Source of the DNA: an uncultured Acidobacteriaceae bacterium
GTDB lineage: Bacteria > Acidobacteriota > Terriglobia > Terriglobales > Acidobacteriaceae
Assembly (NCBI GenBank): GCA_964591805.1
Contig: CAZQDD010000008.1
Span: forward strand, 27,667 to 91,666
Reading direction: 5' to 3'
Length of the DNA: 64,000 bases
Made by a program: the position numbers and the translations under genes. Below the pieces are notes generated by a model that was given only the letters and a program-made list of their open reading frames with translations, made no database searches and was not told where the DNA came from. Shown here piece by piece: positions 27,693 through 58,195 of the stretch (the stretch's first letter is position 1; each line of letters opens with the position of its first letter).

Positions 27693-28183
27693 ACCGGAAG
27701 TGTCCCGGATCCCCCCTCAGTTGCCAGCCGCTCGCTTGGCCCCATCGAGCGGCTGGGCAAGTGCACCGCAGTGCGGGGGCGGATTCGTGCCATGATCGGG
27801 CGCTGTCCTGCCGGCCCTAATCGCTGGTTTTGATCAGGTCCAGCCTTTCCCGTGCAGCATCCCAAGCGGTGCCTCGTCCCGGCCCGGTCAGGCGACATCA
27901 AAAACGGTAGCAACAATAAGGATGGCGATCCCACACCTCCGGCGCCCTGGAGAGCACCCCGTCGGAGGTGTGGAATATGGCCAATCCCAGCCTTGGACCT
28001 GTGTCAGATTCCTCAACTGACTCCCCAATGGGCGCAAACCATCACCGTTGGAAATATCAACACTTTGAATATCCAGAGGATTATAGTGTTTAGTTTCAAT
28101 AAATTAAGGAGAATGTATGTGCCAGGTCAGTGATGGATTTTGCAACGGCGACACAATTGCACTTTGCTCTGCCGGAGGCAGGA

Positions 28184-32053: not shown

Positions 32054-33076
32054 ATGAAGTTCCAGCTCTCAGCCTGCGCCCTGCTTTTCGTGGCGTTCGC
32101 TTCGCTTTCAGCCCAGCCCGTCCCATCCCATGCCCCAACAAACTACTCCATCGGCGAGGCAACGGCTCCCATGCAGGTGGTGGGCAAGCCCGTTGCCAGG
32201 GTGAACGGCTCGGTGTTAACGGATAAAGACCTTCAAAGTACGATGTATGCAATGTTTCCGTACGCCCGCCAGCACAACGGTTCAATCCCGAAGGCAATGG
32301 AGCCGGACATCCGGGCCGGCGCGATGAAGATGATGGTCTTCGAGGAACTGGTATATCAGGAAGCATTGCGCCGCAAAATGACGGTGCCTCCCGGAAAACT
32401 GGAGAAGGCCGAGGCTGATTTTGCCCGCCGTTTTAACAGCCCAAGCGAATTCCAGCGGTATTTGCAGGTGGAGTTTCACGGCTCCCGGCCGTTGTTGCGC
32501 AGCAAGATCAGGCGCTCGCTGCTGATTGAGCAGCTATTGAAGCTCGAGATAGAGCAGAAGGCGACGGTCTCAGCGGCCGAACTCAAGGGGTATTACGACA
32601 AGAATCCGGCACGTTTCCACGTCGAGGAATCCTTTGCCTTTCAGACGATCTCCATCCTTCCTCCGGCGAATGCGACCCCGGATCAGTTGAAAGAGGCACG
32701 CAAGCGGGCTGGCGAAGCTCTGACCCAGGCCAAGACGGCGAAAACCTACGAGCAGTTTGGATTGTTGGCGGAGAAGTACAGCGACGACGATTACCGCGTC
32801 GTGATGGGCGATCACAAGGCCGTGGAGCGTGCCAAGTTGCCGCCTTCGGTGGTGCAGGCCCTACTGGCACTCGCACCCGATCAGGCCAGCGGCCTGATCC
32901 AGGTCGAGAACGCCTACACGATCGTCCGCTTGAATAAGCACATCATGGCTGGCCAGCAGAAGTTCGAAGATGTGAAAGCAAGTCTGCGGAAAGAGATGGT
33001 AAGCAAAAAGACCGAGCAGTTGCGCTCGGCCCTCGACCAGAGGCTGCACCAGGGCGCCAAGATTGAGGTACTTTAA
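32054..33076 (+). CDS. SurA/PpiD-like periplasmic chaperone with a parvulin-type PPIase domain
   Basis: Signal peptide MKFQLSACALLFVAFASLSAQP. The SurA_N-like segment is VARVNGSVLTDKDL...FEELVYQEALRRK. The parvulin-like C-terminal part is FGLLAEKYSDD...GLIQVENAYTIVRLNKH. I trimmed the track ORF (31931), whose extension overlaps the upstream gene and terminator. Confidence 0.7.
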   Translation: MKFQLSACALLFVAFASLSAQPVPSHAPTNYSIGEATAPMQVVGKPVARVNGSVLTDKDLQSTMYAMFPYARQHNGSIPKAMEPDIRAGAMKMMVFEELVYQEALRRKMTVPPGKLEKAEADFARRFNSPSEFQRYLQVEFHGSRPLLRSKIRRSLLIEQLLKLEIEQKATVSAAELKGYYDKNPARFHVEESFAFQTISILPPANATPDQLKEARKRAGEALTQAKTAKTYEQFGLLAEKYSDDDYRVVMGDHKAVERAKLPPSVVQALLALAPDQASGLIQVENAYTIVRLNKHIMAGQQKFEDVKASLRKEMVSKKTEQLRSALDQRLHQGAKIEVL

Positions 33077-33283
33077 TTCCATCGCGCGCAGCCTGTGGCG
33101 GAATTCCGGCTGGCTCCGGGTACGGCCGCAGGGAATGGTATTTCAGCCGTGAACGCCATCGGCCCAGGAGCAGCATGGAATCGGGAGCCACTGCGCCATA
33201 TCGCGCAATCCAAGATAGATGCAGACCGCTGCAGAGTGTTAGTATTAACCGATATTTCAACTACTTAGGGATGAGTACAGCGT

Positions 33284-33299
33284 TGGTCTTCTAATTGCT
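33284..33299 (+). promoter_or_regulatory. Candidate sigma-54 (-24/-12) promoter: TGGTCT-N5-TTGCT
   Basis: GG at 33285-33286 and GC at 33297-33298 have the canonical spacing. It lies 35-60 nt upstream of the possible barrel start codons in a 256-nt intergenic region. The -24 half is weak (TGG only). Confidence 0.4.
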
Positions 33300-33332
33300 C
33301 TATCACCGTGTGGTTCTCATTTCGCCACCCCG

Positions 33333-35204: not shown

Positions 35205-36286
35205 CCCAAGCGCGCGGAAGGAGCCTGCGGTTGGCTCTGCGGATGGCCTGCGCTGTACTGCTTCTGCTGACGCCGGCGCTGGCGTCGCGGCAGGCCAAAG
35301 TAGCCGATGTGGGTCCGCCCGACCTTTTGCTGGAAGGCGGCCGCAAGCTGAGCTACGAACGCAGCTTCAGCTCCGAACGCGAAGTAAAACCGAAGCGGGG
35401 CTTCTGGAACAGGGTGCTCGACGTTGTTGCCGGCGAACCGGAGTTCCACTACCTGGTTCGCCCCTATAGTGTCATAACCGATTCCCATGGCCGCATTATT
35501 GTGACCGATCCGGGAGCGCACGGGATCCACATCTTCGACTTTACCCAACAGAAGTATAAGTTCATCTCGCGCCGGGAAAATACGAAGGATCCAATGCATT
35601 CTCCGCAATGCGTCGCCCTGGACGCAGAAGACAACATTTACGTGACCGATTCGGATGCGGGCAAAATCTTCGTGTTCGACTCCAGCGGAAAGTATAAGCG
35701 GGTGATCGGCAGTTTGAGGGGCGGCGAAGGCTATTTCAAGCGTCCCACCGGGATTGCTGTCGATTCCTCCGCACAGCGAATTTACCTGACGGATACACTG
35801 CGCAACCAGGTATTCGTGCTCGATATGCAGGGCAACATCCTGCAGAAAATCGGCAAGAACGGCGAGGGCGACGGGGAATTCAACTACCCCACGGAATTAC
35901 GGCTGGCCGGAGAAAGCCTTCTCGTTGTGGACGCGATGAATTTCCGGGTCCAGGCACTGGATCGCTCAGGAGTTTTTCGCTATGCCATCGGCGCGATCGG
36001 TGACGGTGGCGGATCCATGTTCAGGCCAAAAGGGATTGGAGTCGATTCGGAAGGCGATCTCTATGTGGTGGATGGTTTGTGGGCCGTGGTGCAGATCTTC
36101 AACCCCCAAGGCGATCTACTGTATTCCTTTGGAAAATCAGGGACGCAGCCAGGAGAGTTTCAGTTGCCTGCCGGGCTGTTCATTGATCGCAACGACCGTA
36201 TTTACGTGGTGGATTCCTATAACCGTCGCGTCCAGGTCTTTCATTATTACGGATTGCACCAGCAGACCAAGGGAGGTAGTCAATGA
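35186..36286 (+). CDS. NHL-repeat six-bladed beta-propeller protein (second copy)
   Basis: Repeats include PYSVITDSHGRIIVTDPGAHGIHIFD, PQCVALDAEDNIYVTDSDAGKIFVFD, PTGIAVDSSAQRIYLTDTLRNQVFVLD, PKGIGVDSEGDLYVVDGLWAVVQIFN and PAGLFIDRNDRIYVVDSYNRRVQVFHY. The signal-like N-terminus has an ATG at 35186, overlapping the barrel gene by 19 nt. The alternative start is at 35243. Confidence 0.8.
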   Translation: MVQLLLAQARGRSLRLALRMACAVLLLLTPALASRQAKVADVGPPDLLLEGGRKLSYERSFSSEREVKPKRGFWNRVLDVVAGEPEFHYLVRPYSVITDSHGRIIVTDPGAHGIHIFDFTQQKYKFISRRENTKDPMHSPQCVALDAEDNIYVTDSDAGKIFVFDSSGKYKRVIGSLRGGEGYFKRPTGIAVDSSAQRIYLTDTLRNQVFVLDMQGNILQKIGKNGEGDGEFNYPTELRLAGESLLVVDAMNFRVQALDRSGVFRYAIGAIGDGGGSMFRPKGIGVDSEGDLYVVDGLWAVVQIFNPQGDLLYSFGKSGTQPGEFQLPAGLFIDRNDRIYVVDSYNRRVQVFHYYGLHQQTKGGSQ

Positions 36287-38217
36287 GGTCGAAGGTTTTA
36301 TTGGGATGCCTGATGATCGTATTGGCTGCGGGTAACCTGTTGGCGCAGGTTACGGGCGATGTAATTGGCGTGCACAACCTGGGACCGGGAAGCAAGTCTC
36401 CCATTACCGGTACGAGGAATGACATGTGTTCCTACTGCCATGCTCCCCATTCCGGAACTGGAAAAGGGCCTCTATGGAGTCAGCAACTTTCGACCCAGAC
36501 CTACACTCCCTACACCAGTAGCACCTATGTAGAGAAGGGCAATACCCAGCCGTTTGTAGGCGGCCCCAGCAGTCTCTGTCTTAGCTGTCACGACGGCACC
36601 GTCGCGCCCGGAACGACCCAGCCCTATGGCAAGATAACGATGACTGGGACCATGTACAGCGCCGATGTCTTTGGGACGAACCTTTCCAACTCACATCCCT
36701 TCAGCCTCGTTCTTCCACTCAAGGATTCCATAGTTCTGGTTTCGACCCTTGTTTCAAAGCACCAAACGTCTGATCCAACCGGTGCCATCAAGCTCATCCA
36801 TGGCAATATCGAGTGCACCTCCTGTCATAATCCCCACGTCCAGGCCAAGGATCTGATCTCACTGAACTTCCTGGTCCGCGACAGTTCCAGAGGCCAGATG
36901 TGTCTCGCCTGCCATGACCCAACCCGAACCCTGTCAGGACAGGTCAACCCGATGGCGGTTTGGTCGACGAGCATTCACGCCACGGCTACCAACAAAGTAA
37001 CCATCCAGGCCAGCGTTGGAAGCTACAGTACGGTCGCACTGAATGCATGCATCTCCTGCCATGCGCCCCATGAAGCAGGCGGGCCGTTGCGACTGCTCCG
37101 GGGGCCGAACGAACAGGACTGCATCGCCTGCCACAGCGGCGGTTCGAATATGTCTCCCGCCGCACTCAACATCTATGCCGAGTTCAGCAAGGTCGGGCAT
37201 CCGTTCCCGGCGGGCACCAACACCCATGACGCAGACGAAGGCTTCCCGGCTGCCTCTGGTTCCGTCCCACTCGTACTCCTCAACAATAATCGTCACTCCA
37301 CCTGTGCGGATTGTCATAACGCGCATTCCTCCATGCAAGTGACTACGTTTACCGCGCCACCCGCAATACGCGTCTCGCAGAATGGCATTGCCGGTATCAG
37401 CGCGACGGATGGCACGACGATTGTGAATCCTGCGGTCAATCAGTATGAGAACTGTTTGCGTTGTCATGGCACCAGCGCGGGAAAATCCGTGAACGCCGTC
37501 TTTGGTTACTTGCCGGTGCGGGTAGTTGCCGCCGGCGACCCCTTGAATATCATTCCAGAGTTCAGTTTCACGGCCACGTCGAGTCATCCGGTGACGCACG
37601 TCAGCAACAGTAAGTACGCGCAACCCAGCCTGCTCGCCAACATGTTGGATCTCGACGGAATCACCAAGGGACGCCTGACGGGTACGCAGATTCTATGTAC
37701 CGACTGCCACAACAGTGACGATAACCGCGAGTTCGGGGGTGCTGGTCCGGCCGGCCCGCACGGATCCAAGTGGACGCACATTCTCGAGCGCCAATACCTT
37801 GACAATCAGGCGCCGGGACCGGGACAGCCGATTACGAATCTTTACCCAAATCCTGATCTCAGCGTCAATGGCCCCTATGCACTGTGCGGCAAATGTCACG
37901 ACCTGACCAACCAGATCATGCAGAACACCAGTTTCGTCCAGCACTCGCTCCACATCAACACTGGCTTCTCCTGTTCGGTTTGCCACACCGCTCACGGAAT
38001 GGGTACGACCAGCGCAACCATTACGGGCGAGAGACTGGTGAACTTCGACGCGAATGTGGTTGGCCCGAACGGGGCCACGCCCATCTCCTACAATCGCAGC
38101 GCCAATACTTGCACTCTTACATGCCATGGCTACGCGCATAATGCGGACGGATCGGTCACCGCTGACAAGGCTGCGATTCATGGGGTGAAGAACTTGCCCG
38201 CCGGAAAGGGGAAGTGA
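36283..38217 (+). CDS. Secreted multihaem c-type cytochrome, 11 CxxCH motifs plus one CxxxCH motif
   Basis: The ATG overlaps the upstream stop (ATGA), and GGGAGG lies 6 nt upstream. Signal peptide MRSKVLLGCLMIVLAAGNLLAQ. Eleven CxxCH motifs and CTLTCH (38110-38127) were counted. There is no lipobox Cys. Confidence 0.85.
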   Translation: MRSKVLLGCLMIVLAAGNLLAQVTGDVIGVHNLGPGSKSPITGTRNDMCSYCHAPHSGTGKGPLWSQQLSTQTYTPYTSSTYVEKGNTQPFVGGPSSLCLSCHDGTVAPGTTQPYGKITMTGTMYSADVFGTNLSNSHPFSLVLPLKDSIVLVSTLVSKHQTSDPTGAIKLIHGNIECTSCHNPHVQAKDLISLNFLVRDSSRGQMCLACHDPTRTLSGQVNPMAVWSTSIHATATNKVTIQASVGSYSTVALNACISCHAPHEAGGPLRLLRGPNEQDCIACHSGGSNMSPAALNIYAEFSKVGHPFPAGTNTHDADEGFPAASGSVPLVLLNNNRHSTCADCHNAHSSMQVTTFTAPPAIRVSQNGIAGISATDGTTIVNPAVNQYENCLRCHGTSAGKSVNAVFGYLPVRVVAAGDPLNIIPEFSFTATSSHPVTHVSNSKYAQPSLLANMLDLDGITKGRLTGTQILCTDCHNSDDNREFGGAGPAGPHGSKWTHILERQYLDNQAPGPGQPITNLYPNPDLSVNGPYALCGKCHDLTNQIMQNTSFVQHSLHINTGFSCSVCHTAHGMGTTSATITGERLVNFDANVVGPNGATPISYNRSANTCTLTCHGYAHNADGSVTADKAAIHGVKNLPAGKGK

Positions 38218-38374: not shown

Positions 38375-39901
38375 ATGAAGTTGTTGAAGACTATGTCCAT
38401 GAGTTTGGAGTCACCAGCACGCGCAACGCGCAGCGCACACGGAGATGGATTTGCCGTTCCCCCGCTACGGGTTCTCACCCTGCTGCTGCTGTTTAACGCC
38501 GCCGCCGTTTATGAGTCCATTCATCTGACCTCGCTGGCTGATGCTGATGTCTGGTGGCACTTGCGCACGGGTATCTGGATTCTGCAGAATCACGCAGTGC
38601 CGCACAGCGGAGTATTTTCGCAATACCCGGCTTTGCCCTGGACGGCTGGCAGTTGGGGCTATGATGGATTGCTTGCGGCAGCGTATAAGTTATTCGGACT
38701 ACGGGCTGTCCCGCTGTCGTTGATGGTGCTCGAGGTTACACTCGCGGTGTCAGCATTTGTGCTGGCGGGCGGCAGGCGACGGCATTTCTGCCTCGCTGTA
38801 ATCCTCGCCATTGCCGCGCAGTACGCTTTTCTGCACGTGCGTCCCCTGCCCAATCTTGGCTCGCTCGTGTTATTTTCCGTCGAGTTGGCGTTGCTATTCC
38901 AGAGCCGGCGAACGGGCAGTGTGCGAGCGCTCCTCTGGCTGCCTCTTCTATTCGTCCTATGGACCAACTTCGACATCCAGTTCGTCTATGGACTCTACGT
39001 TTTGGGCCTGTTCTTCGTATCAGCGTTCACTGCAGAGATCTGCCGCCGTCGCGGCCTGGCTTGGACCAGCGATGCGCCCACCTTGCCGATGGGAGTGATC
39101 GCGGCGGTCGCCGCCGTCTCCGCGGTTGCCACCCTGCTATCGCCCTATACCTATCACGTCTACGAAGCTGCGATCAAGAATGCCACCCCGGTAGCATATG
39201 TCGCGCAACACCACGCCATGAACTTCCGCCACCCGCAACACTACGTGTTATTGTTGCTGGCCATGGCCGCTTTCCTTACTCTAGGAAGGCAACGCTCGCG
39301 TGATCTGTTCAAAATTACGCTTATGATCGCCAGCGCCATGGTATCGTTTCGCATGCAATGCGATGCCGGGTTCCTTGCCTTGGCCTCCGTGGCTGTGATT
39401 GGCGATGCATTCGCAATCGATAAGTCTGAGACAGAGCAGGAGGCTGGCGCACACCTTGGGAAATGGGAATCCCTGGCGGCGGCCGGACTGCTGTTCGTAG
39501 TGACTGCGGCCGCGGCCTACCGTATTCCCTCCGGCAGCCAAGCGCTGTTGAAGAAGATAGGCGAGAGCTTTCCCGTGCAAGCCTCCGATTACATTCGAGC
39601 CAACCAGCTTCCGAATCCCTTGTTTAACGAATATCAATGGGGAGGTTTCTTGACCTGGTATTTGCCCGGGTACCCGGTGGCCATCGACGGACGTAGGGAC
39701 CTTTATGGCGAAGACATCAACCTTCGCTATTTCCAGGTAACAAGCGCCGAGATTCCTCTCAACGCCGATCCCGACTTCGCCAATGCCCAGACGATCTTGC
39801 TACCTGCCAACTCTCTTATGGCCGAGGCGCTTGCTACCATCCCCGACTTCAAGGTGGTATACCGCGACGCCTTAGCCACGGTACTGGTGCGGCAGAACTG
39901 A
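38375..39901 (+). CDS. Polytopic membrane protein, GT-C-like paralogue family (short form without TPR)
   Basis: 508 aa, about 11-13 TM segments. The first-loop motif is ADADVWWHLRTGIWILQNHAVP, and the C-terminal block is NEYQWGGFLTWYLPGYPVAIDGRRDLYGE. It is clearly homologous to 45326..46807 and more distantly to 25377..27692 and 46844..49174. Confidence 0.75.
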   Translation: MKLLKTMSMSLESPARATRSAHGDGFAVPPLRVLTLLLLFNAAAVYESIHLTSLADADVWWHLRTGIWILQNHAVPHSGVFSQYPALPWTAGSWGYDGLLAAAYKLFGLRAVPLSLMVLEVTLAVSAFVLAGGRRRHFCLAVILAIAAQYAFLHVRPLPNLGSLVLFSVELALLFQSRRTGSVRALLWLPLLFVLWTNFDIQFVYGLYVLGLFFVSAFTAEICRRRGLAWTSDAPTLPMGVIAAVAAVSAVATLLSPYTYHVYEAAIKNATPVAYVAQHHAMNFRHPQHYVLLLLAMAAFLTLGRQRSRDLFKITLMIASAMVSFRMQCDAGFLALASVAVIGDAFAIDKSETEQEAGAHLGKWESLAAAGLLFVVTAAAAYRIPSGSQALLKKIGESFPVQASDYIRANQLPNPLFNEYQWGGFLTWYLPGYPVAIDGRRDLYGEDINLRYFQVTSAEIPLNADPDFANAQTILLPANSLMAEALATIPDFKVVYRDALATVLVRQN

Positions 39902-39985: not shown

Positions 39986-41488
39986 TCAGTTCCCATCCCG
40001 ACTGTAGATCAGGTAGGCCGCAGCACCGAAATCAGTTCGTTTGTAAAAGATATGGCCGTCGGAGAAGTGTACCAGTCGATAGCCGATTCTGTTCAATGGA
40101 CGGTTTACAATCTTGAAATCGCTTTCCGGGGAAGCGCTGTAGATAATGACATATTCCGGAGCGACGGATTGCAGTTCATCCAGGTTCGTCTCAAATCCAT
40201 AGAATGGCTGCCCGTAGTGGATGTAGGTGGTTGGAATATTGATCAGAATGTCGTGGTTAAAGTAGGCCTGCACTGCTGACATTCCATAGGTGTAACCGAA
40301 AATCGTGGACTTGTCTGCTCCAACCTGTCTCAAGAACCTGGCGGCATCCTCGGAACCGCTGTAAGGGTAAAGGTAATCATTTCTCATTGACACTCCGGCG
40401 TCCCAGATGTTCAGGCAAAACAGGCACGCCAGCAGCGCTATCATCCCGTTCGTTGCCAGGCGCGCAGTGCCGGTAAAAGACCGGGCCTCATTGTCGCTTG
40501 GCCATGCAACCCACAGGCCCGCGATCGCCGCCAGGAATACCGTGCCGTGATGGTGCGGCCGGCCAGCAACCATCACAAACAGCAAAATCATTACCGAGAC
40601 AGAGAGCAGAAACGGCAGCAGCTTCCGCCGCATGCAGCACCATCCTGCCGCTGCCAGCAGGAAGAGAGAAGAAAGTAGCCATTGATCGAAAAAAGCAAAG
40701 TCGACAGCATCCCCAAACCGGCTCAGACTGACCACATGTCTCGTGCTGGCCGGCATCTTGTCCGGCGCGAACATAAGCATGTCATGGGTCGGCTTCAGAA
40801 TGACAAAGAGGAATAGAAAGACGAGAAGCACGGCGCCAATGTAGAAAAAATAGCGCCGCCGCAGTGTTTCGCCCAGCCGTGGCCAATTCCTGATTGCCTC
40901 GACCAGGTAGCACAACCCAAAAGCCGCGGCCAACACAATCCCGTGCAAGGAGACATTTGCGAGCAGAATCAAGGCCAGCGCCATCCGGCCTGGATGTTCG
41001 CGATCACTATAGAAGGAAGCAGTAACGAACAGTAGCAACGGCAACAGGTTGTAAGAGCGTGCTACTACTGCGTACTGGTAGACGATAACGTAGGAAAACA
41101 CCAGCAGGTAACGAAGCGGGCGGGGAAACGGCGCCTTCCACAGAATGAAAGCAACTCCCAGCGCGGCACATATCGCGCCAATCACACCCATCGCACCATA
41201 AGGTGCATGGAAAACATGCTGTACGATCCAAAGAATAGTGTGCCACAGGCCGGGCGTGCCTTCGTAGCGTAATTCGTAAAACCAGATTGACTTCAGATCG
41301 AGATCACGCGCAATCAGCCATGTCTGGGATTCGTCAGCCCAAGGCTCGTGATGCCGCAGGATGAAGGCAACCAGAGTTACCCAGATACCAAACACCCCCA
41401 GATCGGCGATATGCCACCAGCGGCTCTGGAGTCCCGCCGTCTGCTGTTCGGGCAATTCGAGTGTGATCTTTTCTCGAGTGGTCGTCAT
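39986..41488 (-). CDS. Polytopic membrane protein, probable GT-C-fold glycosyltransferase (ArnT/PMT-like)
   Basis: 500 aa, about 11 TM segments. An acidic first-loop motif HEPWADESQTWLIARD follows TM1, as a DE-type GT-C motif would. The C-terminal domain is soluble. GC content is lower than the surroundings. Confidence 0.6.
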   Translation of the reverse strand: MTTTREKITLELPEQQTAGLQSRWWHIADLGVFGIWVTLVAFILRHHEPWADESQTWLIARDLDLKSIWFYELRYEGTPGLWHTILWIVQHVFHAPYGAMGVIGAICAALGVAFILWKAPFPRPLRYLLVFSYVIVYQYAVVARSYNLLPLLLFVTASFYSDREHPGRMALALILLANVSLHGIVLAAAFGLCYLVEAIRNWPRLGETLRRRYFFYIGAVLLVFLFLFVILKPTHDMLMFAPDKMPASTRHVVSLSRFGDAVDFAFFDQWLLSSLFLLAAAGWCCMRRKLLPFLLSVSVMILLFVMVAGRPHHHGTVFLAAIAGLWVAWPSDNEARSFTGTARLATNGMIALLACLFCLNIWDAGVSMRNDYLYPYSGSEDAARFLRQVGADKSTIFGYTYGMSAVQAYFNHDILINIPTTYIHYGQPFYGFETNLDELQSVAPEYVIIYSASPESDFKIVNRPLNRIGYRLVHFSDGHIFYKRTDFGAAAYLIYSRDGN

Positions 41489-49174: not shown

Positions 49175-49519
49175 GTTTTCCACAACGCGCAGAATAATTC
49201 CAAACAATAAGCAGCCTTGCTGCCAAACACAAACGCCGCCGCCAACTTCCGGTGGAGTTCCTATCTTCAGTAGTTTACGACGAATCGCGGGATTAACCTG
49301 TTGGCTGCGGCCAATCCTTCTGCGGCGGCTCGCGCGGTTCTCAAGGAACTTTGGCTCATGTCAATCACCCAGCGGCGCAACTCGACCTTTGGGGCATCTC
49401 GCGCACAGGCTGCGCTAGAAGCCGTAAAATCCGGCGTCGCAGTCTGCTCGTCCCCGGACACGCTTCACGTATGTTATTCATAACATGAGACTAGAAGTGT
49501 TCTTTTTGAGCAGCGCCTT

Positions 49520-49535
49520 TGGCAGCCGAAGTGCT
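49520..49535 (+). promoter_or_regulatory. Candidate sigma-54 promoter: TGGCAG-N5-GTGCT
   Basis: GG at 49521-49522 and GC at 49533-49534 have canonical spacing. It lies in the 500-nt divergent intergenic region, about 140 nt upstream of the TPR gene 49676. Confidence 0.35.
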
Positions 49536-49675
49536 ACTCTCATCACCAAGTAAGTTCGCGCGCCACCATCACCGTGCCATCCGTGAGCATTTGCCTGCGT
49601 AGACGGCAGCGCCACCGAGTTCAAAGCGGCCATATTTGCCACCAGCCCGCGGACATCCTTAGGAGTTACTGAAAG

Positions 49676-50332
49676 ATGGAAAATCAACCCCCCACCGCCA
49701 GTGTCGAGTGGACCTCGACAAAGGTCTATACCCTTGGTGTGATCTGCCTGGCACTCGGAGTCGCTCTAGGCGCACTGTTCCACGGTCCGGCCCAGCCATC
49801 GCCTGTCCCTGCGGCCATCGTTGCATCCGATCAGCAGATACCACCTGGCGCCGGGCAGATGCCTCCGCCGTCCGCCTCGGGAAATCCCCATGCGATGTCA
49901 CCGAGCCTGGTCAAGGATCCTGCGCTTGAGAAACTCAAGAGCGATCCCAATAATTTCGATTTGCTCTCGCAGGCTGGAAATGCAGAAATGAAGGCCAATG
50001 ACCCGAAGTCGGCGGAAGGCTACTACATCCACGCGCTTAACGTGAAGGATGATCTGGACGTTCGCATCAACCTGGCAAATGCATATTTCCGGGCGGACGA
50101 CGCCGATCAGTCCCTGGCGGAGCTGGCGAAAGTGCTTAAGGTGGATCCCAGGAACGATAAGGCCCTTTACAACACGGGAATGGTGCGGCTGCTAGGCAAA
50201 AACGATCCGAACGGCGCCATCGCCGTCTGGCAAACCTTTTTGAAATACCACCCGGACCATCCCCATAAAGCCCAAGTGCAGGAGATGATCAAGCGGGTAC
50301 AGAACGCAACCAGACTCAAAGCCCAGGGATGA
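49676..50332 (+). CDS. TM-anchored TPR protein (CcmH/NrfG-like cytochrome c biogenesis accessory architecture)
   Basis: A single TM segment (VYTLGVICLALGVALGALF) is followed by a Pro-rich linker and TPR repeats. It sits directly upstream of resB-ccsA and is a paralogue of 22297..22977. Confidence 0.6.
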   Translation: MENQPPTASVEWTSTKVYTLGVICLALGVALGALFHGPAQPSPVPAAIVASDQQIPPGAGQMPPPSASGNPHAMSPSLVKDPALEKLKSDPNNFDLLSQAGNAEMKANDPKSAEGYYIHALNVKDDLDVRINLANAYFRADDADQSLAELAKVLKVDPRNDKALYNTGMVRLLGKNDPNGAIAVWQTFLKYHPDHPHKAQVQEMIKRVQNATRLKAQG

Positions 50333-50729
50333 GCAGGTCCTCGCGCCAGGCGCAACCCTTGCGAGCAGTATCGGTTGCGTGGCAGCGTTCCTGGGCGCTT
50401 CGCGGGACAATGCAAAAACTCGCCATGGCCGCCTACCCGCCGCCGGGTGATTTCCAGCCCACCGCGGGCCTTGCGCAGGAGATAAAGTAATATCAAAGGG
50501 GCGGGAATTCACCTTCAGGCCAGCCGGTCCCAGGGTGGAAGTGGGCTCAGCCAGGCTGGCAAGAGCTGGATTCCAGGATGTGGATTTACGCTCATCGTTT
50601 GGAATCATGAGTGAACACACTCGAAAATCGGCGATTGATGCGCGATATGCCCCATGATTGGTCCGGAAATATAACTTTGCAATCTACATAATTCACTCGA
50701 AACAAACCGCTTGCTCGGTAGGTCGCAAT

Positions 50730-50745
50730 TGGCCCACCAGTTGCA
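50730..50745 (+). promoter_or_regulatory. Candidate sigma-54 promoter: TGGCCC-N5-TTGCA
   Basis: TGGCCCACCAGTTGCA matches the TGGCAC-N5-TTGCA consensus at 10 of 11 fixed positions with correct spacing. It lies 39 nt upstream of the resB ATG. Confidence 0.55.
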
Positions 50746-50783
50746 ATTCAAGATTTGTGCTGTTCAAGGAGCAGGAGCCCGGC

Positions 50784-52241
50784 ATGGGTTTGAAGTCAAT
50801 CTGGACCAAGTTGTATCAAACGCTCGCTTCCGTACGAACGGGTATCTTCCTCATTATCATAGTGGGTGTTTTCTCTGCCATTGGCACGGTCATTTTGCAG
50901 CGTCCCACCTCGGAGCCCGAAGATGTGCAGCGCGCATATTCACCGGAGACCCTGATGTGGCTCGACCGTCTCGGTCTCACCGATATTTTCCATGCCTGGT
51001 GGTTCCTGCTCTTACTGTCATTATTCTGTGTCTGCCTGATTTTCGTTTCGGTGGACCACTGGCCGAATTCCTGGAAGGTCTACTCCAAGCCCATCCGTTT
51101 CGCCGAGCCTCACTTCCGCGCCAGCCTGCCCCGCACGGTAAAGATCGCAGTGACCGATGAAGCCGGCGCGCTGACGGTTGCCGAACGCGTGTTGAGCCGC
51201 TTCGGTTTCAAACCGGAACGGGTGACTGAAAATGGTGCCACCGGGATATACGCCGAAAAGCAGCGCTATTCTGTCTTTGCCGTTTACCTGGTACACCTGA
51301 GCCTGCTCTGCATTTTTGCCGGATACATCGTGGATGGCATCGTGGGTTATCGCGGCAACATCATGGTCCCGGAGGGACAGGCCCTCGGGCAGATCACCTT
51401 GCGGGATGACCGGGGCGGCCAGAGCAAGAAGACGCTTCCGTTCCTCATTCGTTGTGATGGCGCCGGGGAAGAGACCTACGCCGACGGCAGCCCGAAAAAA
51501 TGGTGGTCCAAGCTGGCGCTGATCGAAGGTGGCAAGCAGGTTGCCGCCAAAACGATCGTGGTGAATGACCCCTTCGTGTACCACGGAATTCGGATTTATC
51601 AGGCGAGCATGGGACAGTCGAGCACACCCAGAACCCTCACCTTCGCGGCAACGCCAACCAGCGGGGGAGAAGCGGCGCCAGTCGAGGTTCCTTTGAATGG
51701 CAAGGCGGTGCTGGCCGACGGTGAGAGCCTTAGCGTGCTGCGCTGGGTTCCTGATTACTATGTTCAGGATAACGAGGTCTACAAAAAGTCCGACGAGCCG
51801 GAGAATCCGGCGGTCCAGCTTGGCCTGACCAACGCCAAGGGTGAGACCAGGAAACTCTGGATCCTCTATTCGCAGTTGAACAGCACCAAGGGACAAGATG
51901 CGCCCTATGAGTTTGCACTCAAGAGCGCAACATGGGAGAAATACACGGGCCTGGAGGTTTCACACCAGCCCGGGCAGTATGGAGTCTGGATAGGCGTCGT
52001 GCTGATGGCCTGCGGCTTAGTGATCGCCTTCTATACCCAGCATGTCCGCATCTGGGCCGCGATCGCCGATGACGGCAAGGGCGGAAAGCTCCTCTGGGTG
52101 GGTGGCACGACCAACAAGAACCGCGACCGCTTCCAGGTAAAGTTTGAGCAGATCAAGACGGCGCTGCAAGAGGAGCTCGGCGGAGCCACCTCCAAGGCCG
52201 GCCAAAAGAATCATGAAGAGAAGACGCTGACCCAGGCATAG
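50784..52241 (+). CDS. resB: Cytochrome c biogenesis protein ResB/Ccs1 (system II)
   Basis: [39 protein letters not shown] is a typical ResB N-terminus. There is a large periplasmic domain and a C-terminal TM segment. It is followed by ccsA. I trimmed the track ORF (50658) to the ATG at 50784. Confidence 0.8.
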
Positions 52242-52273
52242 AGTCCGGGGCCAACCTAAGGAGTTATAAAGTT

Positions 52274-53686
52274 ATGTCAGACGCACACGTGGAACCGCAG
52301 CGCCCGGCCAGTGGAGCCACCCTGCTGGTTCTGGTAGGACTGGGAATTGCCTTCGCGTTGCTGGTGGCGCTGCTGGCTGCGGCCAAGACGCACTCCGGCC
52401 CCATCTATGGCGAGGCAAATATGCTCTATGCGGCGCTGGTTCTGTACACCGGCGCGGCAACCCTCTACATGGGATACGGTGTGACGGGGATCGAACGCTA
52501 CGTCAGCGCCGCCTCGCTGCTGACAGCGCTTGGCTTTATCGCCAATACGGCCGCCGTGGCGCATCGTTGGTCGGTGGCTGGCCGTCCGCCATTCTCCAAC
52601 ATGTATGAGATGTTGCTCAGCTTCGTCTGGACCCTCGCCTTGCTGACGCTGATTGCCGAGCGCGCCTACAAGGTCAAGATCATCGGATCGATCACCATGC
52701 CAATTACCGTGGTCTCCGTGATTCTCATGCAGCTGCTGCCAAGCGACGTGCGGCCCCTGGTTCCGGCGCTGCAGTCCACCTGGTTGCAGGTGCATGTGAC
52801 CCTCGCCATGCTCTCCTACGCGGCCTGCGCGGTCAGCTTTGCGCTGGCCCTGATGTTCCTGATCCAGGACAACATGAAGACCGAATCATTCCAGGCGTTG
52901 ACTTCCGCGGGAATGGTTGCGATCTACGCAGCGATGCTGCTGACGCGCTTCCGCTCGGGCGCCCTTGGGGTGACCGCCTACGATCTGGAAGCCAAGACCG
53001 AAGTGATGGTTTCACGCGGCCATCCGCTGTTCATTCAAATTCCCGACCTGGGCTGGCTTTACCTGCTGGTTCTGCTCTCGGCGCTGGCGCCCCTGGCACT
53101 TTACATTGTGGGGCAACTCAAGAAGGATGCCTCGTGGTTCGACGTTGCCAGCAAGGGCATGTTTGTCACCCTGATGCTGCAAGCGGCAGGGCTGGCAATC
53201 TTTGTCGCCCGCGTCAAGCACGGCCAGTACGGCGCGCCCGAGGCAGACGGCCTCTACTCGACCGCCTTGCCGGCCAATCCTTTCCTGCTCGCGGGCATGG
53301 TGGGCAGCATCGTTGCCGGTCTGCTCTACCTGCTGCTCCTGTGGAGGCGTGAAGGGTTGCAGAGAATGATGCCATCGGCCAACGATCTGGACCGCGTCAC
53401 TTACAAGATCATCTGCATCGCCTTCCCGCTGCTGACCTTGATGATCGCCGCCGGAGCCTATTGGGCGAACCAGGCGTGGGGAAGCTACTGGAGTTGGGAT
53501 CCGAAGGAAACCTGGGCGGCCATCACCTGGCTGGTCTACGCCGGCTACCTGCACATGCGCATCACCCGGGGTTGGAAGGGCCGCCGCGCAGCGTGGTTTG
53601 CCATCCTGGGTTTTGCCGTGGTCATCTTCACCTTCTTCGGCGTTACCTATCTGCTGCCTGGTCTGCATGCCTACGCTGCGGGCTAA
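52274..53686 (+). CDS. ccsA: Cytochrome c biogenesis protein CcsA/ResC (system II haem-handling protein)
   Basis: Polytopic, with the WWD-domain signature [26 protein letters not shown] near the C-terminus. AAGGAG lies upstream. Confidence 0.85.
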
Positions 53687-53705
53687 TCCGGATTTCTGAG
53701 TTCCC

Positions 53706-53739
53706 GGCCGCCGCGCTGAGTCGCGTCGGCCCTTTTTTT
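53706..53739 (+). terminator. Rho-independent terminator after ccsA
   Basis: ggccgccgcg, loop ctgagt, then cgcgtcggcc (one mismatch), followed by a run of seven T residues (53733-53739). Confidence 0.75.
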
Positions 53740-53935
53740 GCCATGGCCGGCGCGCCTGCCGGAACGTCGGCAACCACGCTGCGCGAAGCATTCTGGCTGG
53801 CTAATTCCGCCCCTGGGGCAGCCATTTCTGACCGTCGCTTTCCACCGCGATTTTCCGCATCCGGTGGAATGACTTTGCTTTTCGCGGTTGCGCCCGGATA
53901 ATGGAACCAGCTTTGTACTCTCCGAGGAGATCCCG

Positions 53936-54991
53936 GTGGGCCGACTTCGCCTGAACTGGCAAATCAAGACGTTGTTGCCGGTGGCGCTGGTGATGATCAA
54001 CGGATTGCTGCTGTTCATGCTGGTGACCCTTACCTTGCAGGACCCGGCGCGCAATCAGGTCCTGGCCGTGGCCGCTGCCGGCGGCATCGTAATCTGTGCC
54101 GTTCTCTTCATGGTGCTCGCGGTTGTGATCCATCGTCCCATGGTGGAGTTGCAAGCAAAAATGGCGCGGGTGCGTTCCGGCGATCTGTTTGTGAATGTGG
54201 GCTTTGCCGGCCGCAACGATGAAATCGGCGACCTCGGCCGGCACTTCAACGAAATGGTGCAGCAGCTGCGCGAGAGCCGCGAGGAGATTGAGCGGCTGCA
54301 CCGTACTCAGATGTCCCGCGCCGAGCATCTTTCGACCTTGGGCGAGATGGCCGCTGGATTGGCCCACGAGATTCGCAACCCCCTGGCCGGCATCGCCGGG
54401 GTCATGGAAATTGTCGGGCGCGACTTACCCCCCAATTCCGCCGCGATCAGCGTGCTGGGCGAGGTCCGGCACGAGGTGGTTCACATCAACAAGATCGTCA
54501 GCGAACTGCTGGAGATTGCGCGTCCCAAGCCGCCGGTCTTCCGGCTGGCAAACCTGGTGTCGGTGGCCGAGCACGCCGCCCTGTTCGCACGCGATCAGGC
54601 GGCGGCCAGGAAAGTAACATTGGAAGTGATCAGGAACGAAGTGCTCCCGAACCTGGAATTTGATAGTGGACAGATCCATCAGGTGCTGCTGAACCTGGTG
54701 TTGAATGCGGTCCAGGCCTGCGGTGAAGGCGGCAGTGTCCGCGTCGAGTTCTCGTCCGATGAACGTACGGTCACCGTGACCGTGGCCGACACGGGGAAGG
54801 GAATTCCGCCGGCCGTACTGCCGAATATCTTCCGGCCCTTCTTTACTACCAAGGGAAACGGCACCGGCTTGGGGCTCTCCCTGGCGCGCCGCATCGTGGA
54901 GGATCACGGAGGGCGGCTTGAAGCCACCAGCGAACTGGACAAGGGAAGTGAATTCACATTGGTCCTCCCGAAAACCAGACCAACCGAGTGA
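53936..54991 (+). CDS. Sensor histidine kinase (2 TM, HAMP, HisKA, HATPase_c)
   Basis: Two TM helices are separated by a roughly 9-residue loop. A HAMP-like region (DEIGDLGRHFNEMV) is followed by the H-box LAHEIRNPL and the N/G boxes LLNLVLNAVQA, DTGKGI and GTGLGLS. The proposed GTG start at 53936 follows GAGGAG; the track start is 53888. Confidence 0.85.
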   Translation: MGRLRLNWQIKTLLPVALVMINGLLLFMLVTLTLQDPARNQVLAVAAAGGIVICAVLFMVLAVVIHRPMVELQAKMARVRSGDLFVNVGFAGRNDEIGDLGRHFNEMVQQLRESREEIERLHRTQMSRAEHLSTLGEMAAGLAHEIRNPLAGIAGVMEIVGRDLPPNSAAISVLGEVRHEVVHINKIVSELLEIARPKPPVFRLANLVSVAEHAALFARDQAAARKVTLEVIRNEVLPNLEFDSGQIHQVLLNLVLNAVQACGEGGSVRVEFSSDERTVTVTVADTGKGIPPAVLPNIFRPFFTTKGNGTGLGLSLARRIVEDHGGRLEATSELDKGSEFTLVLPKTRPTE

Positions 54992-55077
54992 ATCGGGCAC
55001 GGGGAACCTGCGAAAGCCTCCACCGGATATGCTCTTCCGTGATAATCTCAAGAACCGATTTCGGGTAACCGATCTAG

Positions 55078-56574
55078 ATGCCGAGTGAAAAAGTCCTAAT
55101 CGTCGATGACGAAAAGTTGGTGCGTTGGTCCCTGCGCCAGAAGTGCGAAGAGTGGGGATACCAGGTATCGGAAGCCGAGAATGGCACGGACGGACTGCGC
55201 CTGGCCCACAACGACTCTCCCAACCTGGTGTTGCTGGACGTGCGCCTGCCCGACATGAACGGCTTGCAGGTGCTGCAGCGTCTAAAGCAGGCGGGAGACG
55301 CGCGCGCCATCATCATGATTACGGCGGACCCTCAACTGGAAGACGTAAAGCAGGCCCTCAAACAGGGCGCATACGATTTCATCGGAAAGCCGATCGACTA
55401 CGACGAACTGCGGGTCGCGGTGAAAAACGCGCTGGAAGCAACCAAGTTGCGTTCCGAGAACGAGACGCTGAAGAAAGAGGTGATGCAGCGCCGCCGCGCC
55501 TCCTATCACGATGTGGTCGGCGAGTCCCAGCGGATGCACGACCTGATGTCGTTCGTCAACAAGGTTGCCTCCAGCGAAGCCACCACCATCCTCATCCAGG
55601 GCGAGAGCGGAACGGGTAAGGACCTGATCTCTCGCGCCATTCACTTCGAGAGCCGGAGAAAAGACAAGCCGCTGATCGTCATCAATTGCTCGGCGATTCC
55701 CGAGACCCTGATGGAGGCCGAGCTCTTCGGCCACGAAAAGGGCGCATTCACCGACGCAAAATCGATGAAGAAGGGCTTGTTTGAACAGGCGGATGGCGGC
55801 ACGCTCTTCCTGGATGAGATTGGCGAACTCTCCGGCCTGTTGCAGGCCAAACTGCTCAGGGTGCTGGAGGAGCAGGTCATCCGCCGAGTCGGCGGCGTGA
55901 AAGACCAGGAAGTGGATGTGCGCGTGATTGCCGCCAGCAACCGCGATCTGGAGCGCGCCGTACGCGACGGACAATTCCGCCAGGATCTCTACTACCGCCT
56001 GGCCATCATTTCGCTCTTCCTGCCGCCGCTGCGTGACCGCCGCGAAGACATTCTGCCACTGGTGCACTTTTTCATCGAGCGCTACAACAAACGATTTCGC
56101 AAGTCCGTACGCGGTATTACTCCGGAGACCCGCGAGCTGCTGACCAAGTATGACTGGCCCGGCAATGTGCGCGAACTGAAAAACGCAATCGAACGCGCCA
56201 TGATTCTTGAAGACGACGACTTGCTGCGTCCGGTCTACCTGCCATTTTCCGTCGGTTCGCCCCTCAGCAGCCTGACCGCCTTTGAAGTCTCGTCGGGAGG
56301 AAACGTCGCGGCCGGCAGCGGGCTCATCCTGTCCCCGCCTGAGACCCAGGTCGTCAACGGCAAAAACCTGCCCCGGCTATCGATTCCGGAAGGCGGCACG
56401 AGCCTGGAGGAGATCGAGCGAACTTTTGTCGAAATGGCAATGCAGCAGGCCAATCGTAACCAGACCCAGGCAGCCAAACTGCTTGACATCAGTCGCGACG
56501 CTCTACGCTACAAGCTGAAGAAATTCGGTCTGATGCATTCGGAAGACGAAGAGGTGAGTACTCCCCGGCAGTGA
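55078..56574 (+). CDS. Sigma-54-dependent response regulator (NtrC family: REC, AAA+, Fis-type HTH)
   Basis: The REC domain has LLDVRLPDMNG. Walker A is GESGTGKD. The GAFTGA-type loop reads EKGAFTDA. Also present are ELFGHEKGAF, RVIAASNRDL and the C-terminal HTH NQTQAAKLLDISRDALRYKLKKFG. Confidence 0.9.
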   Translation: MPSEKVLIVDDEKLVRWSLRQKCEEWGYQVSEAENGTDGLRLAHNDSPNLVLLDVRLPDMNGLQVLQRLKQAGDARAIIMITADPQLEDVKQALKQGAYDFIGKPIDYDELRVAVKNALEATKLRSENETLKKEVMQRRRASYHDVVGESQRMHDLMSFVNKVASSEATTILIQGESGTGKDLISRAIHFESRRKDKPLIVINCSAIPETLMEAELFGHEKGAFTDAKSMKKGLFEQADGGTLFLDEIGELSGLLQAKLLRVLEEQVIRRVGGVKDQEVDVRVIAASNRDLERAVRDGQFRQDLYYRLAIISLFLPPLRDRREDILPLVHFFIERYNKRFRKSVRGITPETRELLTKYDWPGNVRELKNAIERAMILEDDDLLRPVYLPFSVGSPLSSLTAFEVSSGGNVAAGSGLILSPPETQVVNGKNLPRLSIPEGGTSLEEIERTFVEMAMQQANRNQTQAAKLLDISRDALRYKLKKFGLMHSEDEEVSTPRQ

Positions 56575-56648
56575 AGCAGGCGAACGGCGGAGAATTCGGG
56601 ACGCGGATTTCCGTCGCATGATTCCAGGGTGTAATCCGCACTTCCAAG

Positions 56649-56671
56649 CGGCCCTCGCGGCCGTTTTTTTT
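56649..56671 (+). terminator. Short GC hairpin plus T8 run after the response regulator gene
   Basis: cggcc, loop ctcgc, then ggccg, followed by tttttttt (56664-56671). Confidence 0.55.
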
Positions 56672-56864
56672 CGACACTTCCGCCGCCATTCACCATGGGC
56701 CCCGGAAATCGGAGCGATGGCTCCGCAACCAAAGATGCGGAATCGTCCGCACATCTGGGGCAATTCGCACAGAGGAAAAGACGAGTCTTGCACAAGCAGC
56801 GTAGTGGTTAATTCTAAGTGGTTGAAAAGAAAAAGAAAAACTTCACGAGAATTTGTGTACAGTT

Positions 56865-56880
56865 TGGCCCACTATGTGCC
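56865..56880 (+). promoter_or_regulatory. Candidate sigma-54 promoter: TGGCCC-N5-GTGCC
   Basis: TGGCCCACTATGTGCC has canonical GG/GC spacing and shares the first eight bases (TGGCCCAC) with the resB candidate. It ends 29 nt upstream of the proposed hemA TTG start. Confidence 0.45.
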
Positions 56881-56908
56881 TTTCTACGAGGGACAAAGGA
56901 GAATTTCC

Positions 56909-58195
56909 TTGGAACCGACCTTGGTGGTGATCGGCATCAGCCTCCGCAGCGCCAAACTGGCCACGCGTGAGCGCTTTCTGCTGGACACTGGCAAGAGATC
57001 GGAGGCGCTCTCCGCGTTGGGCCGCTCGGATGCGATCGATGAAGTAATCGTTCTCTCCAATTGCAACCGCACCGAATTTCTTGTCTGGACGCAGGATGCT
57101 TCCGAGGCTGCCAACTCGGTGCTCCGCTTCTTGACGCGGTCGAGCAATTTGAAGCTGGCGGAGTGGTCGAACTTCTACCGGCTGGTAGGCGATGCTGCCG
57201 TGGCCCACATCCTGCGCGTAGCATCAGGCATTGATTCTCCCGTCTTCGGCGAACCGGAGGCAGCCAATTCTGCCCTTTCCGCCTGGCAACAGGCACAGAG
57301 AGCCAGCACCACCGGACGGTTTCTTGACGCGTTGATGGCCAAGGCATTCAGCGTGTCGTCCCGAGTTCGACAGGAGCTGGGGACTGCTTCGACCAAGACA
57401 ACCACGGCAGAGGCCGCGCTTGCAGCGTGCCGCGAGTCGCTTGGCGACCTGCGCCACAGCCGCGTTCTCATCCTGGGTGCAGGGCAGATGGCCCTGGCCG
57501 CGGTGCGCGAGTTTCAAGCTGCGGAGACCGGTGAAATCACGGTCGTGAATCGCAACTGGGATCACGCCCTGCAGCTTGCCCGGCAGTGCAAGGTCAAGGC
57601 AGCCCACGCGGAAACCTTATGGGAACAGGTCCTGCGGGCAGACGCGGTTGTTTCCGCCGCCGCGCAGCGGGTGCTGCTGACGCGCGAGGAAATGGAAGTT
57701 GTGCTGCGCGAGCGCAAGGACAGGAAGATCGTAATCGTCGATCTGGGTGTACCCCGCACGGTTGATTTCCAGGTTCGCACTCTGGCCGGAGTTACCGCCT
57801 ACGACCTCGACGATCTTTGCGACGCCATGGACAGGAGTGAGCAACGCCGCACCATGCTGCCGAAGGCGGAACGCATCATCGCCGAAGAGGCCGCGGGTTT
57901 TCGCAATAAGCTTCTGTCGGAGTCGATCCTGCCCACGATTTCCGCCGTGCGCGAGAGGCTGGAACTCATTTGTCAGCAGGAAATGGATCAGTTGAACGAA
58001 CAGTTCGGGCCCTTTACCGAGGATCAGGCGGTCGCCTTGGCGGCGCTCTCGGCGCACATCACGCAGCGCATTTCGGCGACGATGGCGAGGCAGCTGAAAG
58101 AGATGCCGGGGCGCTCCGAGTTGACCGCTGCCATTCAGCACCTGTTTCAACTGGAAGTGCACATCTCAAAGGCCGCCCCCAAAGTTACTGACTAG
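56909..58195 (+). CDS. hemA: Glutamyl-tRNA reductase
   Basis: LVVIGISLRSAKLATRERF, NRTEFLVW, VASGIDSPVFGEPE and ILGAGQMALAAV are HemA signature blocks. The proposed TTG start at 56909 lies 7 nt after AAGGAG. I judge the track extension from 56618 to be non-coding. Confidence 0.85.
   Translation: MEPTLVVIGISLRSAKLATRERFLLDTGKRSEALSALGRSDAIDEVIVLSNCNRTEFLVWTQDASEAANSVLRFLTRSSNLKLAEWSNFYRLVGDAAVAHILRVASGIDSPVFGEPEAANSALSAWQQAQRASTTGRFLDALMAKAFSVSSRVRQELGTASTKTTTAEAALAACRESLGDLRHSRVLILGAGQMALAAVREFQAAETGEITVVNRNWDHALQLARQCKVKAAHAETLWEQVLRADAVVSAAAQRVLLTREEMEVVLRERKDRKIVIVDLGVPRTVDFQVRTLAGVTAYDLDDLCDAMDRSEQRRTMLPKAERIIAEEAAGFRNKLLSESILPTISAVRERLELICQQEMDQLNEQFGPFTEDQAVALAALSAHITQRISATMARQLKEMPGRSELTAAIQHLFQLEVHISKAAPKVTD

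Follow-up and report, generated by a model that had tools for sequence, protein, structure and literature searches.

A probable σ54 circuit common to the synthesis of haem, the maturation of cytochromes c and an outer-membrane cytochrome conduit in an uncultured Acidobacteriaceae bacterium

Are the genes with which an uncultured Acidobacteriaceae bacterium of peat soil makes haem, attaches it to cytochromes c and builds an outer-membrane cytochrome conduit switched on together? The question is raised by a 64,000-nt stretch of DNA (hereafter the window; assembly GCA_964591805.1, contig CAZQDD010000008.1, positions 27,667 to 91,666), in which a histidine kinase and an NtrC-type response regulator are encoded between ccsA and hemA. 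To our knowledge, nothing is known about the control of multihaem cytochrome genes in the order Terriglobales. A preliminary description of the window, made from its sequence, had raised the possibility of a σ54 circuit in which this kinase and activator are linked to the synthesis of haem, to cytochrome maturation by system II and to a cytochrome/barrel operon. The suggestion is supported here by promoter elements that are kept in relatives, by an upstream dyad common to four promoters and by the synteny of the kinase and activator genes. We consider it likely that the sites in front of resB, hemA, a TPR gene and the barrel operon are σ54 promoters that are co-regulated through the common dyad by the adjacent two-component pair. 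The genes concerned, all on the + strand, are as follows.

33360-35204, +: putative outer-membrane barrel, likely GTG start at 33360, no Pfam match
35186-36286, +: NHL beta-propeller (Pfam)
36283-38217, +: multihaem cytochrome with an MtrC/MtrF-like domain (Pfam)
33360-38217, +: the barrel/NHL/multihaem cytochrome target operon formed by these three genes
49676-50332, +: membrane-anchored TPR protein, ATG start at 49676, weak Pfam match to a CcmH/CycH-type TPR
50784-52241, +: resB, system II cytochrome c maturation (Pfam ResB, 8.5e-89)
52274-53686, +: ccsA (Pfam Cytochrom_C_asm, 1.7e-49)
53936-54991, +: histidine kinase, likely GTG start at 53936 (Pfam HAMP, HisKA, HATPase)
55078-56574, +: NtrC-type response regulator (Pfam REC, Sigma54_activat, HTH_8)
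56909-58195, +: hemA, glutamyl-tRNA reductase, TTG start (Pfam GlutR_N, Shikimate_DH, GlutR_dimer)

The start of resB was placed at the ATG at 50784, not at the TTG at 50658 given by the ORF finder. All four -24/-12 elements quoted in the preliminary description were present as quoted; each falls in a gap between coding sequences and is oriented like the gene that follows.

33284-33299, +: -24/-12 element TGGTCTTCTAATTGCT (quoted as TGGTCTTCTAATTGC), 76 nt 5´ of the likely barrel GTG at 33360
49520-49535, +: -24/-12 element TGGCAGCCGAAGTGCT, 156 nt 5´ of the TPR ATG at 49676
50730-50745, +: -24/-12 element TGGCCCACCAGTTGCA, 54 nt 5´ of the resB ATG at 50784
56865-56880, +: -24/-12 element TGGCCCACTATGTGCC, 44 nt 5´ of the hemA TTG at 56909

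The hemA element does share its first eight bases with the resB element. Scored against the textbook consensus (TGGCAC-N5-TTGCW, 11 positions), the resB element, which had been called near consensus, matched 10 positions. There are only two such sites in the window, and the other one, at 19976 (+), was taken as chance because it lies inside a permease gene and lacks the dyad described below. The TPR element matched nine positions, a score reached by 33 sites in the window. By the sequence of the window alone, then, only resB stands out. The minimal TGG-N9-TGC pattern was not enriched (62 occurrences compared to 51.9 ± 7.0 in shuffled sequence), and its count was rejected as evidence. The earlier caution that this pattern says little was thus sound, while the accompanying estimate of about 30 chance occurrences was too low. 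The case is therefore carried by conservation in relatives and by the common upstream dyad.

A matrix scan, which the preliminary description had proposed as a check, was carried out with a clade matrix built from the sites of relatives, to which neither the window nor its near-twin L011 contributed (loci of relatives are numbered L001 onwards). Among the 127,958 window positions, the hemA element ranked first, the resB element second and the TPR element fourth, followed by a minus-strand site at 49225; the barrel element scored less well, at rank 16. The ranks of the resB, hemA and barrel elements are not independent of the training set, given that the training sites are orthologous. The two sites of the TPR region are independent of it, as no orthologue of the window TPR gene was in the training. 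The match at rank 3, at 14723 (-), was taken as chance, being inside a KdsC-like gene and without a dyad.

When the regions upstream of resB and hemA were aligned, conserved blocks emerged, and one of these, a 16-bp imperfect palindrome, TG.G..ATAT..C.CA, was common to both. This dyad, absent from the preliminary description, was found upstream of all four promoters in the window and of most sites in relatives, 88-92 nt away in the case of resB and the barrel operon. The sites, which are candidate upstream activator sequences (UAS), and the elements that accompany them are listed here with no strand assigned.

33192-33207: dyad TGCGCCATATCGCGCA, candidate barrel UAS, 92 nt 5´ of the TGG; UAS matrix score 17.4, third best in the window
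49390-49405: dyad TGGGGCATCTCGCGCA, candidate TPR UAS, starting 130 nt 5´ of the -24 element
50601-50616: conserved block GGAATCATGAGTGAAC, 38 nt 5´ of the resB dyad, from an alignment of 17 close relatives
50639-50654: dyad TGCGCGATATGCCCCA, candidate resB-ccsA UAS, 91 nt 5´ of the -24 element; UAS matrix score 23.5, best in the window
56736-56751: perfect dyad TGCGGAATCGTCCGCA, the second at hemA, 20 nt 5´ of the hemA UAS and 129 nt 5´ of the TGG
56756-56771: dyad TGGGGCAATTCGCACA, candidate hemA UAS, 109 nt 5´ of the -24 element; UAS matrix score 20.2
56815-56827: IHF-like element TAAGTGGTTGAAA, between the hemA UAS and the promoter

The barrel and TPR dyads played no part in defining the pattern, and the chance of a match in a given 50-nt interval is ~0.005. 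A degenerate form of the pattern gave seven matches in the window, about the number expected by chance, with five of the seven upstream of the four promoters; a tighter form, TG.G..AWHT..C.CA, gave six, four of them upstream of the named promoters. Matches at 42492 and 44544, both inside genes, were taken as chance. At the second hemA site, relatives keep the symmetry of TGCGGAATCGTCCGCA through paired changes (TGAGG...CCTCA), and in distant clades the dyads read TGGGTGATATGCCTCA or TGGGTTATATGGCCCA with the core unchanged. The conserved block at 50601-50616 may be a second activator site.

The distance between dyad and promoter is fixed as well. Across the window and 129 loci from relatives (1.6 Mb), we collected 87 non-redundant dyad/promoter pairs, and the spacing was 87-93 nt in 70 of these, 109-110 nt at the hemA sites and 130 nt at the TPR sites, in steps of ~20 nt, or two helical turns. 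The dyad thus lies 80-150 nt upstream, is common to the promoters and is phased, as looked for in a σ54 enhancer. If the TGG is taken as -26, the center of the main dyad falls ~108 nt upstream of the predicted start, and the other distances are 128 and 148 nt; at classical promoters, NtrC and NifA sites are positioned near -108. A common dyad at helically phased distances is what would be expected of one common enhancer-binding activator.

The interval between dyad and promoter also holds a conserved feature. The IHF consensus is WATCAANNNNTTR, and TAAGTGGTTGAAA at hemA has one mismatch to its reverse complement. The pattern CTAA-N4-TTGAAA was kept in 15 of 15 hemA upstream regions, and a conserved A/T-rich AA-N4-TTA lies between dyad and promoter at resB and at the barrel operon. 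From these patterns we infer that the A/T-rich element is an IHF site and that IHF is involved.

Other repeats and dyad-like sequences were noted in the same regions. A direct repeat, cactcgaaa, at 50618-50626 and 50693-50701, overlaps blocks (TCGAAA) that close relatives have kept in part, and the strongly conserved and widely shared element, the dyad at 50639-50654, lies between its two copies. At 27969-28017, ~100-150 nt before a 16-haem cytochrome gene (ATG near 28117), TGTGGAATATGGCCAA and TGTGTCAGATTCCTCA resemble the dyad; they are 31 nt apart and adjoin an 11-bp inverted repeat. The gap downstream of them is A/T-rich and has no -24/-12 element, for which reason they were kept out of the regulon. 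The sequence TTGGCGCGATATGTGC at 41166-41181 (-) is an odd hybrid that fits the -24/-12 pattern and also has the dyad core GCGCGATATG. It was treated as chance, which is probably what it is, since it lies inside an ORF (39986-41488) without a dyad.

Conservation of these elements was examined first around resB. A ResB scan of species-representative genomes gave 49 loci, nearly all from uncultured Terriglobales/Korobacteraceae-type Acidobacteriota, and the 41 with usable upstream sequence were counted. TGG-N9-TGC was present within 130 nt of the resB start in 39 of the 41, against a background of 0.05 per 100 nt, and the strict dyad pattern in 34. The element persists at 42-47% ResB identity, where the flanks are unalignable (for example TGGCTCCCGACGTGCG and TGGCGCGGAACGTGCT), and its constant letters are TGGC and (T/G)TGC. 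For hemA, TTTGGC-N7-GTGC was found 38-64 nt before the start in all 13 evaluable loci, including five with hemA on the other strand, several kb away and 41-45% identical. Searching metagenomes with the barrel protein yielded 80 loci (40-53% identity), and the dyad of these homologues lies at 88-91 nt. Of the 44 barrel genes that come first in a unit of their own, 36 have the dyad and -24/-12 pair, compared to none of the 27 that directly follow a PPIase gene; NHL and cytochrome genes accompany the barrel gene in 66 and 57 of 71 homologous loci, respectively. The window barrel gene is intermediate, as it has a PPIase gene upstream but a 283-nt gap that holds a dyad and a weaker promoter. At the resB, hemA and barrel loci, then, the promoter element is kept while the flanks diverge. 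In one clade, a 474-aa secreted protein with no Pfam match, encoded directly before resB (L018, 8339-9790), has its own dyad 90 nt upstream together with a -24/-12 element and may be a further regulon member.

The TPR protein at 49676-50332 is likely a cytochrome maturation helper. In seven distant relatives (L014, L019, L030, L031, L034, L037 and L045), the gene directly after hemA, in a hemA-TPR operon, encodes a TPR protein 32-35% identical to that of the window, an adjacency that ties this TPR family functionally to haem/cytochrome biogenesis. There is also a second TPR paralogue, closest to the window gene at 22264-22977, in nine relatives (L001, L002, L004, L007, L010, L012, L013, L015 and L032). 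In most of the nine, a conserved TGGCA-N..-CTGC lies ~126-139 nt before the start; L010 carries it twice (-216 and -180), and only L007 has the dyad too. The window gene at 22264 has no such element.

The gene divergent from the TPR gene, at 49174-46844 (-), codes for a 776-aa protein that crosses the membrane several times and ends in TPR repeats. The minus-strand site ranked fifth by the clade matrix lies in front of it.

49211-49225, -: possible divergent -24/-12 element TGGCAGCAAGGCTGC (TTTGGCAGCAAGGCTGC), 51 nt 5´ of the ATG at 49174 of the 776-aa protein

This site starts 180 nt from the dyad at 49390. Its identity as a -24/-12 element is uncertain, as the sequence can also fold as a hairpin, and it is kept only in the close relative L011, where the outer letters are the same and the middle has changed. 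The divergent unit is a possible fifth member of the regulon. Even at E = 1, Pfam matches were absent for the barrel protein, for the N-terminal part of this large TPR protein and for the ORF at 38375-39901.

Is the protein needed to work such promoters encoded nearby? The preliminary description had placed a σ54 enhancer-binding regulator between ccsA and hemA, and the domain matches agree (Response_reg 2.3e-30, Sigma54_activat 1.6e-68, HTH_8 4.2e-11), giving the complete domain set of an NtrC-class enhancer-binding protein. The sequence also shows the two Walker motifs, A (GESGTGK) and B (FLDEIGE). The σ54 contact loop reads GAFTDA, not GAFTGA, in 20 of 20 orthologues with an aligned stretch over the loop (70-95% identity), and GAFTDA is among the variants that keep activation, as for Desulfovibrio vulgaris DVU2106 (PMC4641369). 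No clade departs from the helix-turn-helix segment NQT.AA.LLDISRDALRYKLKKFG, which accords with a dyad core that is itself invariant. The protein scored below all NCBIfam equivalog cut-offs (AtoC 447 compared to 714, NtrC 402 compared to 559, ZraR 381 compared to 760), which makes it an unnamed member of the family. No other enhancer-binding protein gene was found within the window.

The kinase likewise fits its earlier account as a protein with almost no periplasmic loop, with two hydrophobic spans ~9 residues apart followed by HAMP, HisKA and HATPase domains. In an alignment of 20 orthologues, the spans were invariant at NW..K..LP and at a Cys in the second span, as was an Arg in the 9-residue outer loop, and these residues (encoded within 53936-54200) are candidates for reading the signal. 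Of about 45 complete loci, 36 have the kinase gene after ccsA, and in 21 the activator gene comes next; the kinase gene is the most constant neighbor of resB-ccsA across the order (57-89% identity). Taken together, the pair looks functional, and the adjacent activator is the probable binder of the dyad.

Two hairpins mark the ends of transcription units in this region.

53706-53739, +: terminator-like hairpin with a seven-T run, 3´ of ccsA
56646-56676, +: intrinsic terminator, hairpin and T-run, 3´ of the regulator gene

Given these terminators, resB-ccsA, the kinase/activator genes and hemA are separate units. Absence of known RNA families in 27000-59000 led us to drop a leader-RNA reading of the upstream regions. 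For RNA, we used assembled contigs (not reads) that match the window perfectly, from four peat or wetland metatranscriptomes. TPR, resB, ccsA and hemA were covered in the four, which shows that these genes are expressed in situ, by the organism itself or by a strain almost identical to it. The contigs for TPR begin at 49572-49584 (predicted start ~49546), an RNA fragment for resB begins at 50770, joined directly to adapter sequence (predicted start ~50756), and a 1223-nt contig for hemA begins at 56908 (predicted start ~56891). Contigs for these three thus begin about 13-35 nt past the predicted starts, and depth was zero over 49200-49500 and 56424-56724, immediately 5´ of the TPR and hemA promoter regions. 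We rejected the contigs as a start-site map, however, as they are compatible with the predicted starts and not decisive.

The same contigs gave two further observations. A small c-type cytochrome gene at 31111-31986, just 5´ of the PPIase and barrel genes, had by far the highest expression of the region in the peat metatranscriptomes (contig depth 130-360, compared to ≤20 for its neighbors). Contigs of three runs have a 155-nt skip inside the activator gene (55998-56154), with only 24 letters on the shorter side, which most likely reflects paralogous AAA+ genes of other organisms in the metatranscriptomes.

Several observations weigh against a common σ54 circuit run by the adjacent pair, and they bear on different parts of it. 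One alternative, which we find quite unlikely, is that the promoters are true σ54 promoters with a common enhancer, but that the dyad is bound by another enhancer-binding protein, encoded elsewhere, with the adjacent pair controlling something else or just part of this set. The resB dyad and promoter do occur without an adjacent pair in six close relatives (L003, L004, L005, L008, L012 and L036), and a clade (L016-L027, L040-L043) has kept the kinase but has STAS or other genes in the place of the activator. With the pair not always adjacent, binding of the dyad by the activator is deduced from synteny and motif shape only. The kinase and activator genes themselves have no upstream dyad or -24/-12 element, and the pair is thus probably not autoregulated through the dyad; convincing σ70 hexamers were not found in 53740-53935 either. 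The constancy of the kinase gene beside resB-ccsA speaks for the adjacent pair nonetheless, as do a helix-turn-helix as invariant as the dyad core and the lack of a second enhancer-binding protein gene in the window. It is very unlikely, in our estimation, that resB-ccsA and hemA alone are enhancer-dependent, with the barrel (33284) and TPR (49520, 49225) sites decayed or chance and the genes read from other promoters or by read-through. The barrel site is the weakest of the four by the clade matrix, and both it and the hemA site match eight of 11 consensus positions, as do 249 other window positions, which is within background. Contigs 32881-33225 and 33182-33454 cross the PPIase-barrel gap, and the promoters of resB and hemA are each bridged by a contig of low depth (50677-51092 and 56791-57072), such that read-through or DNA carry-over is possible. 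Furthermore, 27 of 71 barrel homologues follow a PPIase gene and lack a promoter of their own, and for the TPR site a comparison is possible with one very close relative only (L011). That both sites have dyads at the phased distances of 92 and 130 nt is difficult to reconcile with chance, at the match frequency given above; the dyad and promoter pair recurs in barrel homologues with their own gap, and the TPR paralogues of nine relatives have TGGCA-N..-CTGC ~130 nt before their start codons.

The most far-reaching alternative is that the motifs have nothing to do with σ54, the dyad being a CRP/FNR-like or other dimeric operator and TGGC...GTGC a second operator or an unusual σ70-family promoter. 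The CRP consensus is TGTGA-N6-TCACA, and the 5-6-5 geometry of the dyad is like that of CRP-type sites. The -12 element is mostly GTGC rather than TTGC. No RpoN box was found in the window and the 129 loci, an uninformative result, and σ54 is presumed to be encoded by the source genome. What makes this alternative highly improbable is that the GG and GC, at canonical spacing, are just the positions that never vary, while the bases between them drift. In addition, a fixed ~90 nt to the dyad with an IHF-like element between is an enhancer layout, not a class I or class II position, a complete σ54 activator is encoded alongside, and there are no good σ70 hexamers in the promoter gaps. We therefore retain four σ54 promoters under the adjacent pair as the most likely reading.

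How would such a circuit work? The kinase would probably sense a membrane or redox-linked cue and phosphorylate the adjacent NtrC-type activator, which would then oligomerize on the dyads. DNA bending, with the A/T-rich IHF-like element in between, would deliver the activator to the closed σ54 complex, and ATP hydrolysis by the activator would open the promoter. HemA carries out the first committed step of tetrapyrrole synthesis, and CcsBA functions in haem export and attachment. Haem supply by HemA, export and attachment by CcsBA and the TPR protein, and the haem-hungry conduit would consequently go up together, a coherent target set comprising a source of haem, its export and attachment, and a conduit cytochrome with many haems per chain. 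The absence of a periplasmic domain and the invariant membrane Cys of the kinase suggest that the cue lies within the membrane and could be redox state, haem or the load on maturation. A more specific idea, to which we assign a low but not negligible likelihood, is that the loop-less kinase is a flux sensor of cytochrome c biogenesis that reads haem or CcsBA load within the membrane, through the invariant membrane Cys or through contact with ResB/CcsA. If true, this sensor would let the cell adjust its capacity for making and attaching haem to what its many multihaem cytochromes require, and a feedback circuit of this kind would be new to any cytochrome maturation system.

The predicted promoters closely resemble glnAp2, nifH and other NtrC/NifA-type promoters, with GG/GC at canonical spacing, a UAS dyad ~108 nt or more upstream and an A/T-rich IHF-like element. 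The NifA UAS is TGT-N10-ACA, and the dyad, at 16 bp, is likewise of a TG-N12-CA type; the activator, too, is a response regulator with REC, AAA+ and Fis-type helix-turn-helix domains as in those systems. Unlike glnAp2 and nifH, the targets here are not nitrogen metabolism but haem synthesis, system II maturation and a cytochrome conduit, GTGC predominates in the -12 element, the loop is GAFTDA and the activator falls below the AtoC, NtrC and ZraR cut-offs. The neighborhood recalls the resABCDE genes of Bacillus subtilis, where resB and resC (ccsA) are followed by the genes for ResD-ResE, which control respiratory and haem-related genes. ResD is OmpR-type and acts at σA promoters, and ResE has a large outer loop and a PAS domain, whereas here the regulator is NtrC-type, the kinase gene comes first, and the kinase has neither a large outer loop nor a PAS domain. 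The pair in the window is an analogue of ResDE by neighborhood, not a member of that group.

A σ54 connection to multihaem cytochromes is known from Desulfovibrio, where comparative genomics identified DVU3142 and σ54 promoters at the cytochrome operon ohcBAC (PMC4641369). The two systems have in common an enhancer-binding protein and σ54 promoters at a multihaem cytochrome operon; the Desulfovibrio regulon is without hemA or maturation genes, and the lineage, activator family and site differ. Porin-multihaem cytochrome clusters of peat Terriglobales, transcribed in peat, were recently described (10.64898/2026.05.27.727921), and the organisms and gene clusters are of the same kind as those considered here. 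That preprint contains no regulatory analysis and describes no circuit; sigma factors, resB and hemA are unmentioned, and 'regulat' occurs twice, neither time about gene control. In the literature, we found no report of σ54 control of hemA or of ccsBA/system II maturation genes, and no paper on σ54 in Acidobacteria.

Collectively, these data indicate that four units in the window, resB-ccsA, hemA, the TPR gene and the barrel/NHL/multihaem cytochrome operon, have the predicted layout of classical enhancer-dependent promoters, and that one promoter-plus-enhancer design, common to haem synthesis, cytochrome c maturation and outer-membrane conduit genes, appears to be conserved in the window and more than 100 relatives. 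The adjoining kinase and activator probably drive this set. The mechanism is standard; what is new is the set of genes that it would control, in an ecologically dominant uncultured lineage. The Terriglobales Acidobacteriota, dominant in acidic peat, have large, transcribed sets of multihaem cytochromes and are thought to respire extracellular acceptors, and extracellular respiration in peat bears on the output of CO2 compared to methane. A single conserved circuit would couple the step that commits the cell to making haem with the machine for exporting and attaching it and with the outer-membrane conduit. It also offers handles on these bacteria, in the form of a defined promoter for reporter constructs, a 16-bp site with which regulon members can be found in metagenomes and a candidate sensor pair. 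The signal read by the kinase may show what turns these bacteria to cytochrome-based respiration.

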